This document shows positions 1 to 5,318 of a DNA stretch of 5,318 nucleotides, one piece after another. The notes beneath the pieces are model-generated. The model saw only the letters and a list, made by a program, of their open reading frames with translations. It was not told the DNA's origin and searched no databases. The DNA lies in the IMG/VR virus record IMGVR_UViG_2703718792_000005. One strand, 5' to 3'. Origin of the DNA: a virus. Lineage: Duplodnaviria; Heunggongvirae; Uroviricota; Caudoviricetes. The position numbers and the translations under genes were made by a program. How positions within the stretch are numbered: position 1 is the stretch's first letter; the number at the start of each line of letters is the position of its first letter.

Positions 1-676
1 ACTGAATGAATGCAACCGTGCGGAGCAGTCGGCCAGCGTGGTGCTCTGGGAAATCGATCTGACAGAGGGCGGTGGTGAACGTGATTTTTTCTGTAATGGG
101 CAGAACGAAAAAGGTGAGCCGGTCACCTGGCAGGGGCGGCAGTATCAGGCGTACCCCATTCAGGGAAGCGGCTTTGAGATGAACGGCAAAGGAGCCAGTG
201 CAAGACCAACGCTGAAAGTCTCTAATCTGCACGGCATGGTCACCGGGATGGCGGAAGACCTGCAGAGTCTGGTCGGCGGAACGGTGGTCAGGCGTAAGGT
301 TTACGCCCGTTTTCTGGATGCGGTGAACTTCGTCAACGGAAACAGCGAAGCTGATCCGGAGCAGGAGGTGATCAGCCGCTGGCGCATCGAGCAGTGCAGC
401 GAACTGAGTGCGGTCAGCGCCTCCTTTGTGTTGTCCACACCGACGGAAACGGATGGCGCTGTTTTTCCGGGACGTATCATGCTGGCCAACACCTGCACCT
501 GGACCTATCGCGGCGATGAGTGCGGTTATCACGGTCCGGCGATCGCGGATGAATATGACCAGCCAACGTCCGATATCACGAAGGATAAATGCAGCAAATG
601 CCTGAGCGGTTGTAAGTTCCGCAATAACGTCGGCAACTTTGGCGGCTTCCTTTCCATTAACAAACTTTCGCAGTAA
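1..676 (+). CDS. L: Tail tip assembly protein L (lambda gpL-like), 5'-truncated by window edge; codon phase begins at nt 2; stop TAA 674-676
   Basis: Translation from nt 2 reads LNECNRAEQSASVVLWEIDLTEGGGER...FRNNVGNFGGFLSINKLSQ*, closely matching recalled lambda gpL. C-terminal cysteine cluster (C-x8-C ... C-x2-C-x3-C, nt 494-613) matches the gpL Fe-S motif. The ORF track's start at 38 is an internal GTG; the real start lies upstream of the window. Confidence 0.93.
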   Translation, partial: LNECNRAEQSASVVLWEIDLTEGGGERDFFCNGQNEKGEPVTWQGRQYQAYPIQGSGFEMNGKGASARPTLKVSNLHGMVTGMAEDLQSLVGGTVVRRKVYARFLDAVNFVNGNSEADPEQEVISRWRIEQCSELSAVSASFVLSTPTETDGAVFPGRIMLANTCTWTYRGDECGYHGPAIADEYDQPTSDITKDKCSKCLSGCKFRNNVGNFGGFLSINKLSQ

Positions 677-681
677 ATCCC

Positions 682-1425
682 ATGACAGAGACAGAATCAG
701 CGATTCTGGCGCACGCCCGGCGATGTGCGCCAGCGGAGTCGTGCGGCTTCGTGGTGAGAACGCCGGAGGGGGAAAGATATTTTCCCTGCGTGAATATCTC
801 CGGTGAGCCGGAGGCGTATTTCCGGATGTCGCCGGAAGACTGGCTGCAGGCAGAAATGCAGGGTGAGATTGTGGCGCTGGTCCACAGCCACCCCGGTGGT
901 CTGCCCTGGCTGAGTGAGGCTGACAGGCGGCTGCAGGTGCAGAGCGATTTGCCCTGGTGGCTGGTCTGCCGGGTGACGATTCATAAGTTCCGCTGTGTGC
1001 CGCATCTCACCGGGCGGCGCTTTGAGCACGGGGTGACGGACTGTTACACGCTGTTCCGGGATGCTTATCATCTGGCGGGGATTGAGATGCCGGATTTTCA
1101 TCGCGAGGATGACTGGTGGCGTCACGGTCAGAATCTCTATCTGGATAATCTGGAGGCCACAGGGCTGTATCAGGTGCCGTTGTCATCAGCACAACCGGGC
1201 GATGTGCTGCTGTGCTGTTTTGGTTCATCGGTGCCGAATCATGCCGCCATTTACTGCGGCGACGGCGAGCTGCTGCACCATATTCCTGAACAACTGAGCA
1301 AACGAGAGAGGTATACCGACAAATGGCAGCGACGCACACACTCCCTCTGGCGTCACCGGGCATGGCACGCATCTGCCTTTACGGGGATTTGCAACGATTT
1401 GGCCGCCGCATCGACCTTCGTGTGA
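682..1425 (+). CDS. K: Tail tip assembly protein K (lambda gpK-like); N-terminal JAMM/MPN metalloprotease-like domain plus C-terminal NlpC/P60 cysteine peptidase-like domain
   Basis: 247-aa ORF starting MTETESAILAHARRCAPAESCGFVV, nearly identical to recalled lambda gpK. JAMM motif HSHPGGLPWLSEAD (H-x-H-x7-S-x2-D) at nt 883-924. Candidate NlpC/P60 catalytic Cys in GVTDCYTLF (nt 1042-1044) and His in VPNHAAIY (nt 1240-1242). Starts 5 nt after the L stop, suggesting translational coupling. Confidence 0.95.
   Translation: MTETESAILAHARRCAPAESCGFVVRTPEGERYFPCVNISGEPEAYFRMSPEDWLQAEMQGEIVALVHSHPGGLPWLSEADRRLQVQSDLPWWLVCRVTIHKFRCVPHLTGRRFEHGVTDCYTLFRDAYHLAGIEMPDFHREDDWWRHGQNLYLDNLEATGLYQVPLSSAQPGDVLLCCFGSSVPNHAAIYCGDGELLHHIPEQLSKRERYTDKWQRRTHSLWRHRAWHASAFTGICNDLAAASTFV
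1306..1311 (+). promoter_or_regulatory. Shine-Dalgarno-like (GAGAGG) for I, embedded in the K coding sequence
   Basis: Purine-rich GAGAGG lies 11 nt upstream of the I ATG at 1323. Confidence 0.45.
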
Positions 1426-1970
1426 AAACGGGGGCTGAAGCCATCCGCGCACTGTCCACACAGGTCCCGGCGTTTCGTCAGAAACTGAATGACGGCTGGT
1501 ATCAGGTGCGCATTGCCGGGCGTGATGCAGGTGAAACCGAATTATCTGCCCGTCTTAATGAGCCGCTGGCAAATGGTGCCGTGATCCACATCGTACCGCG
1601 CCTGGCGGGGGCTAAAAGTGGCGGCGTATTTCAGGCTGTGCTGGGGGCGGCGCTGATTGCGGTGGCATGGTGGAACCCTGCAGGCTGGCTGGGTGCTGCG
1701 GCTTTATCGGGCATGTATGCGGCAGGAGCCAGTATGATCCTGGGCGGTGTGGCCCAGATGCTGGCACCGAAAGCCCGGACGCCCACAGCGACCAGCACGG
1801 ATAACGGTAAGCAGAACACCTATTTCTCGTCACTGGATAACATGGTTGCTCAGGGCAATGTTTTGCCTGTTCTGTACGGTGAAATGCGTGTGGGGTCGCG
1901 GGTGGTTTCTCAGGAGATCAGCACGGCAGACGAAGGTGACGGTGGTCAGGTTGTGGTGATTGGTCGCTGA
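1323..1970 (+). CDS. I: Tail tip assembly protein I (lambda gpI-like); N-terminal ubiquitin-like (beta-grasp) region and Gly/Ala-rich hydrophobic C-terminal segment
   Basis: 215-aa ORF MAATHTLPLASPGMARICLYGDLQRFGRRIDLRVKTGAEAIRAL...EISTADEGDGGQVVVIGR*, matching recalled lambda gpI at both ends. Start overlaps the 3' end of K by 103 nt in a different frame, as in lambda. GAGAGG Shine-Dalgarno-like motif at 1306-1311, 11 nt upstream of the ATG. Confidence 0.92.
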   Translation: MAATHTLPLASPGMARICLYGDLQRFGRRIDLRVKTGAEAIRALSTQVPAFRQKLNDGWYQVRIAGRDAGETELSARLNEPLANGAVIHIVPRLAGAKSGGVFQAVLGAALIAVAWWNPAGWLGAAALSGMYAAGASMILGGVAQMLAPKARTPTATSTDNGKQNTYFSSLDNMVAQGNVLPVLYGEMRVGSRVVSQEISTADEGDGGQVVVIGR

Positions 1971-2030: not shown

Positions 2031-5000
2031 ATGGGTAAAGGCAGCAGTAAGGGGCATACCCCGCGCGAAGCGAAGGACAACCTGAAGTCCACGCAGTTGC
2101 TGAGTGTGATCGATGCCATCAGCGAAGGGCCGATTGAAGGTCCGGTGGATGGGTTAAAAAGCGTGCTGCTGAACAGTACGCCGGTGCTGGACAGTGAGGG
2201 GAATACCAACATCTCTGGTGTCACGGTGGTGTTCCGGGCAGGTGAGCAGGAACAGACACCGCCGGAGGGATTTGAATCCTCCGGATCCGAGACGGTGCTG
2301 GGTACGGAAGTGAAATACGACACGCCGATCACCCGGACCATCACGTCGGCAAACATCGACCGTCTGCGCCTGACCTTCGGTGTGCAGGCACTGGTGGAAA
2401 CCACCTCAAAGGGTGACAGGAATCCGTCGGAAGTCCGCCTGCTGGTTCAGATACAACGTAACGGTGGCTGGGTGACGGAAAAAGACATCACCATTAAGGG
2501 TAAAACCACTTCACAGTATCTGGCCTCGGTGGTGGTGGATAACCTGCCGCCGCGCCCGTTCAGTATCCGGATGCGCAGGATGACGCCGGACAGCACCACA
2601 GACCAGCTGCAGAACAAAACGCTCTGGTCGTCATACACCGAAATTATCGATGTGAAACAGTGCTACCCGAACACGGCACTGGTCGGCGTGCAGGTGGACT
2701 CGGAGCAGTTCGGCAGCCAGCAGGTGAGCCGTAATTATCATCTGCGCGGGCGTATTCTGCAGGTGCCGTCGAATTATAACCCGCAGACGCGGCAATACAG
2801 CGGTATCTGGGACGGAACGTTTAAACCGGCATACAGCAACAACATGGCCTGGTGTCTGTGGGATATGCTGACCCACCCGCGCTACGGCATGGGGAAACGT
2901 CTTGGTGCGGCGGATGTGGATAAATGGGCGCTGTATGTCATCGGCCAGTACTGCGATCAGTCAGTGCCGGACGGTTTTGGCGGCACGGAGCCGCGCATCA
3001 CCTGTAATGCGTACCTGACCACACAGCGCAAGGCGTGGGATGTGCTCAGTGATTTCTGCTCTGCGATGCGCTGTATGCCGGTATGGAACGGGCAGACGCT
3101 GACGTTCGTGCAGGACCGACCGTCGGATAAGGTGTGGACCTATAACCGCAGTAATGTGGTGATGCCGGATGATGGCGCGCCGTTCCGCTACAGCTTCAGC
3201 GCCCTGAAAGACCGCCATAATGCCGTTGAAGTGAACTGGACTGACCCGGATAACGGCTGGGAGACGGCAACAGAGCTTGTGGAGGACACGCAGGCCATTG
3301 CCCGTTACGGTCGTAACGTCACGAAGATGGATGCCTTTGGCTGTACCAGTCGGGGGCAGGCACACCGTGCCGGGCTGTGGCTGATTAAAACGGAGCTGCT
3401 GGAAACGCAGACCGTGGACTTCAGCGTGGGCGCAGAAGGGCTTCGCCATGTACCGGGCGATGTCATTGAAATCTGTGATGATGACTATGCGGGGATCAGC
3501 ACCGGTGGGCGTGTGCTGGCGGTGAACAGCCAGACCCGGACGCTGACGCTCGACCGTGAAATCACGCTGCCATCCTCCGGTACCACGCTGATAAGCCTGG
3601 TTGACGGAAGTGGCAATCCGGTCAGCGTGGAGGTTCAGTCCGTCACCGACGGCGTGAAGGTAAAAGTGAGCCGTGTTCCTGACGGTGTTGCTGAATACAG
3701 CGTATGGGGGCTGAAGTTGCCGACGCTGCGCCAGCGACTGTTCCGCTGCGTGAGTATCCGTGAGAACGATGACGGCACGTATGCCATCACCGCCGTGCAG
3801 CATGTACCGGAAAAAGAAGCCATCGTGGATAACGGGGCGCACTTTGACGGTGACCAGAGCGGCACAGTGAATGGTGTCACGCCGCCAGCGGTGCAGCACC
3901 TGATCGCAGAAGTCACTGCAGACAGCGGGGAATATCAGGTGCTGGCGCGCTGGGACACGCCGAAGGTGGTGAAGGGCGTGAGCTTCCTGCTCCGTCTGAC
4001 CGTAACAGCGGACGACGGCAGTGAGCGGCTGGTCAGCACGGCCCGGACGACGGAAACCACATACCGCTTCACGCAACTGGCGCCGGGGAACTACAGGCTG
4101 ACAGTCCGGGCGGTAAATGCCCGGGGGCAGCAGGGCGATCCGGCGTCGGTATCGTTCCGGATTGCCGCACCGGCAGCACCGTCGAGGATTGAGCTGACGC
4201 CGGGCTATTTTCAGGTAACCGCCACGCCGCATCTTGCGGTTTATGACCCGACGGTACAGTTTGAGTTCTGGTTCTCGGAAACGCGGATTACCGATATCAG
4301 GCAGGTTGAAACCACAGCCCGCTACCTTGGCACGGGGCTGTACTGGATAGCCGCCAGTATCAATATCAAACCGGGCCATGATTATTACTTTTATATCCGC
4401 AGTGTGAACACCGTTGGCAAATCGGCATTCGTGGAGGCTGTTGGTCAGCCGAGTGATGATGCATCCGGTTATCTGGATTTTTTCAAAGGCGAGATAGGGA
4501 AAACCCATCTGGCTCAGGAGCTGTGGACGCAGATTGATAACGGTCAGCTTGCGCCTGACCTGGCTGAAATCAGGACGTCCATTACGGATGTCAGCAATGA
4601 AATCACACAGACCGTCAATAAGAAACTGGAAGACCAGAGTGCGGCAATTCAGCAGATACAGAAGGTTCAGGTTGATACAAATAATAACCTGAACAGCATG
4701 TGGGCAGTGAAGCTGCAGCAGATGCAGGACGGACGCCTCTATATTGCGGGTATCGGTGCCGGTATTGAGAACACCCCTGACGGCATGCAGAGTCAGGTGC
4801 TGCTGGCGGCAGACAGGATTGCGATGATTAATCCTGCAAATGGCAACACAAAGCCGATGTTTGTTGGTCAGGGTGATCAGATATTCATGAACGAAGTGTT
4901 CCTGAAGTATCTGACGGCTCCTGCCATTACCAGTGGCGGTAATCCTCCGGCATTTTCCCTGACGCCGGACGGGCGACTGACGGCGAAAAATGCGGATATC

Positions 5001-5318
5001 AGTGGCAGTGTGAATGCGAACTCAGGGACGCTCAACAACGTCACGATAAATGAGAACTGTCAGATTAAGGGGAAACTGTCCGCCAACCAGATTGAAGGCG
5101 ATATTGTCAAAACGGTCAGCAAGTCTTTCCCCCGCACGAGCACTTATGCCAGCGGCACCATTACGGTCACGATTAGTGATGATCAGAAGTTTGACCGACA
5201 GGTCATGATACCGCCAGTGTTATTCCGCGGTGGTAAGCATGAGAATTTCAACAGTAATAACCAACAGTCATACTGGTATTCAACCTGCCGATTAAGAGTG
5301 ACCCGCAATGGTCAGGAG
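2031..5318 (+). CDS. J: Tail tip central fibre / host specificity protein J (lambda gpJ-like), 3'-truncated by window edge (1096 codons present, no stop in window)
   Basis: Open frame from ATG 2031 to the window end reads [54 protein letters not shown]..., near-identical to recalled lambda gpJ (1132 aa) for roughly the first 820 residues. GGAG Shine-Dalgarno at 2019-2022, 8 nt upstream. Not listed in the ORF track because there is no in-frame stop within the window. The C-terminal third diverges from lambda. Confidence 0.96.

Follow-up and report, generated by a model that had tools for sequence, protein, structure and literature searches.

The lower beta-prism of a lambda-type gpJ fibre as a probable junction zone between shafts and tips

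Tail fibres such as lambda Stf, P2 H and T-even gp37/gp38 combine a conserved N-terminal part with a variable C-terminal part; crossover takes place in conserved segments, and the swap of cassettes changes host range. Unlike in these fibres, exchange in the DNA analysed here (the window, i.e. the whole stretch of 5,318 nt) takes place inside one long hub-plus-fibre protein, the product of gene J, with variable cassettes on both sides of a conserved zone that we call the island (Table 1).

The closest described structure is the central straight fibre of lambda gpJ (PDB 8XCK/8XCJ/8XCI; Ge & Wang 2024, PMC11101478), encoded by the same gene at the same position and gap-free relative to the window protein across the island. 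This fibre comprises lambda residues 808-998 (PMC13455828), starting at about nt 4452 of the window, and its lower prism, just above the receptor-binding domain (RBD), relays the receptor-binding signal upward in lambda (PMC11101478). In both proteins, FNIII is followed by the helical shaft, the prism and the Ig-like RBD, and about 94% of the non-synonymous sites of the island are unchanged (pN 0.062). The two proteins differ in the helical shaft and upper prism, which in the window are another version, 28 residues longer than in lambda, and in the RBD, which is of another type (pN about 0.27-0.41).

Exchange within J is already known (incongruence, PMC6646904) and used by phage engineers (PMC11338833). 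Trees of whole J and of residues 960-1132 disagree (normalised RF 0.93), for which frequent recombination was blamed, and a breakpoint was also found within the J specificity region (Maddamsetti et al. 2018, PMC6646904); that study used protein alignments, without DNA junctions or homology substrate, whereas here the junction zone and a second cassette were mapped. Laboratory recombination between lambda J and the J of a relict prophage was observed elsewhere in the gene (bioRxiv 10.1101/2020.11.02.365361), and PMC12315714 and bioRxiv 10.64898/2026.04.02.716166 contained nothing on lambda J junctions. In the engineered chimeras A8 and 1A2, lambda gpJ was fused at its residue 964; both are functional, with their receptor switched to OmpC (Brödel et al. 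2024, PMC11338833, which also describes STF chimeras). The A8 fusion point lies inside the island, which shows that fibres joined there can work with a new receptor, and the window's own junction is about 50 nt upstream of it; A8 was built in the laboratory on the lambda shaft, whereas the window carries a mosaic of natural origin with another shaft.

Gene J of the window and its identity to lambda J

The window contains 1096 codons of J and ends about 64 codons short of its stop; the closest full-length relative is the J protein of PhiR70_1 (1160 aa). Several observations place the protein among lambda-type gpJ. All six Pfam domains were found in order (Phage-tail_3, FNIII-A_GpJ, Ig_J, Ig_J_second, Phage_Tail_Tip and Ig_GpJ_C; E values 1e-13 to 3e-43), the last one partial as the window ends. 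The gene order is L-K-I-J, as compared with lambda, 434 and 21; these four genes are annotated in the 199 phage records that cover at least 80% of the window, and the K/I overlap is likewise annotated in lambda and phage 21. Finally, window J is homologous to the solved gpJ fibres 8iyk/8xcj (E about 1e-94 to 1e-96) and 9wca (E 2e-135), with no gaps in the island.

Table 1. Features of the window (positions in nt; position 1 is its first letter)
Feature	Position	Strand	Basis or remark
3' part of tail-tip gene L	1..676	+	ORF 38..676; matching phage records: 'tail tip assembly protein L'
Tail-tip gene K	682..1425	+	ORF; K / C40 peptidase label in matching phages
Tail-tip gene I	1323..1970	+	ORF; overlaps end of K
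Gene J (tip attachment protein / central tail fibre)	2031..5318	+	Translation, Pfam, PhiR70_1 J
Variable shaft cassette (alpha-helical shaft + upper beta-prism)	4500..4859	+	Low identity to lambda
Conserved island (lower beta-sheet prism of central straight fibre)	4860..5060	+	Window J residues 944-1010, lambda gpJ 916-982
Interval with the window's own recombination junction	4941..4964	.	Triplet test
Gly992 codon, equivalent of lambda gpJ residue 964, engineered fusion point	5004..5006	+	28-residue offset (query 76 = lambda 838)
Receptor-binding module (last prism layers + Ig-like RBD), A8/OmpC type	5061..5318	+	Cut by window end

Window J (2031-5318) was aligned by codons with lambda J, and identity was followed along the pair in 30-nt sliding windows. 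The two genes were about 97% identical up to nt ~4450 (1.0 at 4341-4430); identity was 0.10-0.33 at 4521-4670, 0.57-0.70 at 4671-4835, 0.77-1.0 at 4836-5045 and 0.47-0.67 from 5046 onward. The three short boxes that a previous, sequence-only reading had described as near-exact matches to lambda were recovered, with 26/27 identical bases in 4881-4907 (mismatch at 4895), 29/32 in 4942-4973 (mismatches at 4952, 4964 and 4973) and 48/50 in 4986-5035 (mismatches at 5024 and 5035). The peptide quoted for these boxes is present in the J translation, and the renewed divergence, expected after about 5040, was found at about 5045-5061. Upstream of these boxes, the description of the flank as divergent holds only against lambda-type and Stx-type shafts; it does not hold for most database relatives, which share the shaft type of the window and are 93-99% identical to it there.

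PF09327 Phage_Tail_Tip (window residues 872-1000) ends within the island, where window J residues 944-1003 (lambda gpJ 916-975) belong to the lower beta-sheet prism. On the upstream side of the island, synonymous sites of the shaft cassette are saturated relative to lambda, and 7-8 shaft types were distinguished at 88% identity. On its downstream side, 10-12 types of the receptor-binding module (Pfam Ig_GpJ_C) part from about nt 5061. The RBD part of the window has about 97% amino acid identity to PDB 9wca ('A8 gpJ 713'), with about 100/103 residues identical after the fusion point; this likeness suggests OmpC, the receptor of the A8 chimera, as the receptor of the window fibre.

Re-assortment of shafts and tips and position of the junctions

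Shaft types and RBD types combine freely among 95 distinct J 3' ends, in a sample weighted toward E. coli lambdoid phages. The window-type RBD was found on three shaft types, and 434-type, phi21-type and other RBDs on two each. Incongruence of the phylogenies on the two sides of 4860-5040, which the sequence-only reading had proposed to test for, was observed: the two trees had no common splits (RF 58/58), 48 pairs of splits with bootstrap values of 90% or more were in conflict, and the Mantel correlation of shaft and RBD distances was r 0.23. Mosaicism extends into the RBD, whose sub-blocks 5043-5138 and 5139-5318 re-assort, and BLAST matches stop at 5071, 5134, 5245 and 5287 in this module. 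Of 5426 complete E. coli genomes, 4523 carried homologues of the J 3' part, with a median of 2 and a maximum of 11 copies each; J copies in complete E. coli genomes number roughly 12,800.

Using a single change-point model, which tends to snap to island edges, and pairs that are not independent events, the change-over was placed within 4853-5022, at about ten distinct positions, in pairs with a common RBD and different shafts, and mostly at 5020-5080 in pairs with a common shaft and different RBDs. Junctions are scattered across 4853-5080 (lambda residues ~914-990), with no single fixed site. Change-point resolution is limited in the island because all sequences are alike there; the window's own junction was placed by triplet informative-site tests, not by this model. 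The window is a recombinant (Fisher p about 2e-79): left of the junction it resembles J of the L145/L018/L044 type, and right of it J of the Stx2a_WGPS8/Stx1_121427 type, to which it is 97.4% identical from 4941 to the end, with 0 mismatches in 4941-5047.

Recombination is pervasive elsewhere in J too, and the island is not the sole recombination zone (Rmin per 100 nt: Ig region 5.5, island 6.6). The PHI test was significant for the whole region (4299-5042, p = 0.001). It was not significant for the island alone (p = 0.45), where the test is without power: incompatible pairs of sites already make up about 46% of the total, irrespective of their distance, so that incompatibility is saturated at this scale. 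No Chi sites were found.

The island stands apart in the homology that it offers. Between types that differ on both sides, the longest exact run in the island had a median of 26 nt and reached at least 23 nt in 68% of pairs; in the same pairs, the median was 8 nt in the shaft block, where 0% reached 23 nt, and 8-9 nt in the RBD, where 5-6% did. Long exact homology runs between such types are thus offered only by the island. In conclusion, a segment between discrete types, re-assortment of what lies on its two sides, varied junctions and exact homology runs were all found, as expected of a junction zone, and the island is very probably a conserved lower prism in which homologous recombination (HR) between J types re-assorts shafts and tips.

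The island is kept because the protein needs its lower prism, as the low dN/dS and the baseline level of synonymous sites show, and it is flanked by two cassettes with several deeply diverged versions each, the shaft and upper prism upstream and the last prism layers and RBD downstream. In the mechanism that we propose, co-infecting phages and resident prophages recombine by ordinary HR, which resolves in the island because only the island has long uninterrupted identity between J types; the junction positions, the incongruent trees and the window's own junction show this. The exchange would be homology-driven, presumably via RecA or phage recombinases. The clustering of surviving junctions could reflect selection for functional chimeras as much as crossover sites.

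Conservation of the island and other explanations

Our first sample was dominated by the window's shaft type (74/80 sequences), and the island then looked like the upstream flank. In a later, type-balanced sample, with 20 added GenBank phages, the multiple alignment bore out the proposed higher conservation of the island relative to either flank. Its conservation is not unusual and lies at the ordinary J baseline, nucleotide identity being 0.76-0.86 in the island vs 0.77-0.84 in the Ig domains. Database-wide, the island was detectable in 250 phage records, the upstream flank in 87 and the downstream flank in 146; the distribution of identities was unimodal for the island, at 80-90%, and bimodal for the flanks.

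Selection on the protein is strong (island dN/dS 0.03-0.16), and at synonymous sites the island is not particularly constrained: third-codon identity was 0.61-0.72, vs 0.63-0.67 in the Ig region, and island dS was 3-5 times that of the Ig region in the same pairs (0.64 vs 0.13 for window and lambda). Because synonymous sites carry no extra constraint, protein-level selection explains the conservation of the island, and recombination is a by-product of this conservation. Relative to close relatives, island dS (0.2-0.8) was above that of their near-identical flanks (0.03-0.26); since it exceeds flank dS in these relatives, the ancestry of the island is decoupled from that of its flanks.

An extension of the preferred explanation, which we regard as improbable, is that the lower prism acts as a universal mechanical adaptor through which any tip would trigger any helical shaft, that the deeply diverged shafts would adjust the firing threshold or the fibre length to the surface of the host, and that DNA identity would partly be kept for exchangeability; the synonymous-site data argue against this last part.

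Somewhat less probable still is that the island is conserved purely structurally, with no special role in recombination, and that the clustering of junctions is an artefact of low resolution, or results from selection for chimeras joined at a tolerant place. The strong purifying selection, a conservation only at the J baseline, the comparable density of recombination in the Ig region and the non-significant PHI test in the island are all consistent with this explanation. However, informative sites on both sides bracket the window junction to 4941-4964, about ten distinct junction positions lie inside the island, and exact runs of at least 23 nt, needed for HR, are present only there between types that differ on both sides. 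Structural constraint is already the cause of conservation in both this explanation and the preferred one, and the two are compatible.

The sequence-only reading had proposed the boxes as HR anchors and a possible recombination linker. The anchor part of this proposal stands, with junctions inside the island and incongruent trees around it, but the segment is the structural lower beta-prism rather than a dedicated linker. A linker as understood in the modular theory of phage evolution, with DNA kept alike for exchange beyond the need of the protein, is a poor candidate. In its favour, the island is found in nearly all J types and its dS relative to lambda (0.64) is far below that of the flanks, which are saturated. 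However, third-codon identity equals the J baseline, island dS exceeds that of the Ig region, and the phage record search yielded no record more than 95% identical to the island of the window; repeated recombination, which mixes alleles and is visible as a fine patchwork, accounts for a dS below that of the flanks.

Two further explanations are barely credible. The first is that a hidden nucleic-acid element or overlapping gene (regulatory RNA, promoter or alternative frame) accounts for the conservation: nothing was found in its support, Rfam gave no match at E <= 1 in 4400-5318, a scan found promoter-like and terminator-like sites absent from the island, no ORF of at least 60 aa in another frame covers 4860-5040, and synonymous sites show no special conservation. 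The second is that tip diversity is generated by a dedicated system, whether DGR retroelement or invertase shufflon, with the island as its fixed site; a hypervariable C-terminal receptor-binding region does adjoin a conserved segment, but neither inverted crossover repeats nor direct repeats resembling a template were found within the 5.3 kb window (only one 28-nt pair, 71% complementary, near 4860-5318, and weak, short chance repeats elsewhere), junctions are spread over ~200 nt and not at one site, and the variants differ by whole cassettes that have diverged and contain indels, rather than by adenine-specific substitutions.

Significance for fibre exchange

The data on window J leave the current understanding of J exchange unchanged. 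They locate the junction zone on the DNA (about nt 4853-5080) and identify the upstream shaft as a second exchangeable cassette. The window provides a clean natural example, an A8/OmpC-type tip on a non-lambda shaft, joined in the zone that engineers chose. Host-range evolution and the engineering of delivery particles depend on where such a fibre tolerates a cut and a new joint.

Conservation of the 3' part of J

The window carries a lambdoid tail-tip cluster. At least 80% of it was covered by 199 records in a phage collection search, the best relative being Escherichia phage PhiR70_1 (95% identity; J of 1160 residues). Pfam recognized the full gpJ architecture in window J (Phage-tail_3, FNIII-A_GpJ, Ig_J, Ig_J_second, Phage_Tail_Tip, Ig_GpJ_C), with Phage_Tail_Tip at residues 872-1000 and Ig_GpJ_C represented by its start. 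Between I and J there is a hairpin rich in G+C, AAACCGCC TGCT GGCGGTTT, with TGTCGTTT after it; the hairpin was not called by a simple terminator scan of the window, and a terminator is annotated at the equivalent position in the phage 21 record. The ORF antisense to J is most likely a by-product of J codon composition.

Features of the window and modules of J
Feature	Coordinates	Remark
L, 3' end	to 676	tail-tip cluster
K	682-1425	tail-tip cluster
I	1323-1970	tail-tip cluster
Hairpin	1989-2015	
J, first 1096 codons	2031 to window end	tail-tip cluster
Antisense ORF	2961-4508	minus strand, 515 codons
Helical shaft and upper prism	4500-4859	variable block
Island, lower prism	4860-5060	
Last prism layers	5061-5108	co-varying with RBD
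RBD (receptor-binding module) proper	from near 5109	

Codon alignment with lambda J gave ~97% identity up to nt ~4450, a collapse at 4520-4680 with a 28-residue length difference, ~60% at 4680-4840, 77-100% at 4836-5045, and ~60% further downstream. The sequence-only reading had described a conserved island within the divergent 3' part of J, and this alignment proved it correct; its three boxes (4881-4907, 4942-4973 and 4986-5035) match lambda J at 26/27, 29/32 and 48/50 bases, and the peptide it quoted is found in the window J translation.

A first sample (80 loci from IMG/VR and 53 from species-representative genomes), for which the query was the upstream Ig domains to avoid selecting on the island, was dominated by the window's shaft type, and everything upstream of ~5058 appeared equally conserved. 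The whole phage collection was queried with three equal-length segments. The island segment (4860-5040) matched 250 records, none above 95% identity, 36 at 90-95%, 150 at 80-90% and 64 at 60-80%; matches were bimodal upstream (4670-4850; 87 records, 65 at ≥90% and 17 at ≤80%) and downstream (5050-5230; 146 records, 44 and 102, respectively). In a type-balanced set, supplemented with 20 diverse GenBank phages and reduced to one representative per module combination (n = 32), nucleotide identity was 0.76-0.86 in the island (amino acids, 0.80-0.91) and 0.66-0.77 in the shaft block (4629-4868), dropped from 0.74 to 0.51 past 5049, and was 0.77-0.84 in the Ig domains, the J baseline. At the population level the island is genuine: it marks a return to the ordinary baseline of J and is not an ultra-conserved element.

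A lambda-identical J 3' end was also present in non-enteric assemblies (Neobacillus, Leeuwenhoekiella, Pseudomonas, Shewanella, Oceanobacillus, Bradyrhizobium, a Chromatiales MAG and others; sampled loci L091-L097 and L103, also L090, L098-L100 and several short contigs), several copies lying on low-coverage contigs of ~48.4-48.5 kb; these are almost certainly contamination by lambda control or spike-in DNA.

Re-assortment of shaft and receptor-binding modules

J segments clustered at 88% identity fell into 7-8 types of shaft and 10-12 of RBD, in free combination. The window-type RBD is carried by the window-type shaft (PhiR70_1 and others), the lambda-type shaft (phage 2H10) and the Stx-phage-type shaft (Stx1_9793, Stx2a_WGPS8, Stx1_121427), and two shaft types each were found for the 434-type, the phi21-type and three other RBD types. 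These at least three shaft versions are deeply diverged, with saturated synonymous sites between them and a lambda-type 28 residues shorter than the window-type, and they re-assort independently of the RBD. Neighbour-joining trees of the two sides (4500-4859, and 5061 onward to the window end) were incongruent: they had no common split (RF 58/58), 48 pairs of splits were mutually incompatible at ≥90% bootstrap, and the Mantel correlation of the distance matrices was 0.23.

Transitions between J pairs, the counts of which are not independent events, were placed by change-point analysis at 4853-5022 (about ten distinct positions) when the RBD was common and the shaft different, and mostly at 5020-5080 when the shaft was common and the RBD different. 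Such positions would mix crossover sites with chimera survival, which are inseparable from sequence data. The window and Stx2a_WGPS8 J, whose shafts are unrelated, are 97.4% identical from 4941 to the end, with zero mismatches at 4941-5047; upstream of the junction the window matches a group of sampled loci (L145/L018/L044). At sites distinguishing the two putative parents, the window agreed with the left one 209:7 up to the junction and with the right one 125:4 beyond it; the junction lies within 4941-4964 (Fisher p = 2e-79). This exact mosaic (4300-5318) is rare: among 5426 complete E. coli genomes only strain 2015C-4136CT1 matched it at ≥99% (99.7%), and 132 records matched at 95-99%.

Recombination also occurs in J outside the island: in 74 same-shaft-type sequences, minimum events per 100 nt were 6.6 for the island, 5.5 for the Ig region and 2.2-2.8 for the shaft block, and PHI on the island alone was not significant. 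The receptor-binding module (5043-5318) is itself mosaic, all four combinations of types 3/5 of sub-block 5043-5138 with types 3/4 of sub-block 5139-5318 being present; together with BLAST matches terminating at 5071, 5134, 5245 and 5287, this indicates that the tip contains one or more additional junction zones.

Homology and selection in the island

In 222 representative pairs differing in both shaft and RBD type, the median longest exact match was 26 nt in the island, with runs of ≥23 nt in 68% of pairs; it was 8 nt in the shaft block (0% of pairs) and 8-9 nt in the RBD (5-6%). From these runs, the island would be the only usable homologous-recombination substrate between the two cassettes. 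Recombination partners are plentiful, as J 3' homologues occur in 4523/5426 complete E. coli genomes (median 2, maximum 11 copies). There was no Chi site, no Rfam match and no repeat architecture; a scan showed no promoter-like or terminator-like site in the island, and no long ORF overlapped it, all of which argues against a dedicated element.

Window J is aligned to solved lambda gpJ chains with a fixed 28-residue offset, so that the island (window residues 944-1003) corresponds to lambda residues 916-975. The C-terminal part of gpJ comprises FNIII domains, an alpha-helical shaft, a prism of beta sheets (the central straight fibre) and an Ig-like RBD, and LamB binding creates new hydrogen bonds at the prism base and a rotation passed upward (PMC11101478); the lambda central straight fibre spans residues 808-998, followed by the RBD (PMC13455828).

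The dN/dS of the island was 0.03-0.16. Between the window and lambda, dS was 0.64 in the island and 0.13 in the Ig region, and both flanks were saturated at synonymous sites. Against close relatives whose flanks are almost the same as the window's (dS 0.03-0.26), island dS was 0.2-0.8; the island therefore holds a pool of moderately old variants with ancestry decoupled from either flank. Base by base the island is a patchwork, whose linked blocks (4907-4910, 4973-4976, 4982/4985, 4994-5009) combine differently irrespective of flank type. Third-codon identity (0.61-0.72) equalled that of the Ig region (0.63-0.67), with no sign of DNA-level constraint. The proposed recombination anchor is supported with a refinement: the island is a structural segment of the fibre that protein-level selection maintains, and recombination in it is a result of this and not its purpose.

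PhiR12_5 (locus L144, ~1540-1560) has a frameshift inside the island (...TSGGNPP then stop, the rest in another frame), so that its J is annotated as two genes, and in JLK-2012 (locus L139, ~1475) an in-frame stop lies just before the island; sequencing errors, defective genes or a genuine fibre/tip split could account for these.

Relation to known exchanges of the J tip

The whole-J tree conflicts with that of the 'specificity region' (residues 960-1132; normalised RF 0.93), from which frequent recombination was concluded (Maddamsetti et al. 2018, PMC6646904). In the laboratory, lambda J was seen to recombine with a relict prophage J, further upstream in J (bioRxiv 10.1101/2020.11.02.365361). 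A8, an engineered, OmpC-using lambda gpJ chimera, was fused at lambda residue 964 (Brödel et al. 2024, PMC11338833), which is window Gly992 (nt 5004-5006), within the third box. Its structure (PDB 9wca, 'A8 gpJ 713') is lambda-like before residue 964, and past that residue it shares ~97% identity with the window; by this homology only, the window fibre is predicted to use OmpC. Exchange of the J tip in the island is a phenomenon already known and already exploited; added here are a map of its junction zone at the DNA level, the junction of the window itself, and evidence for the shaft as a second exchangeable cassette.
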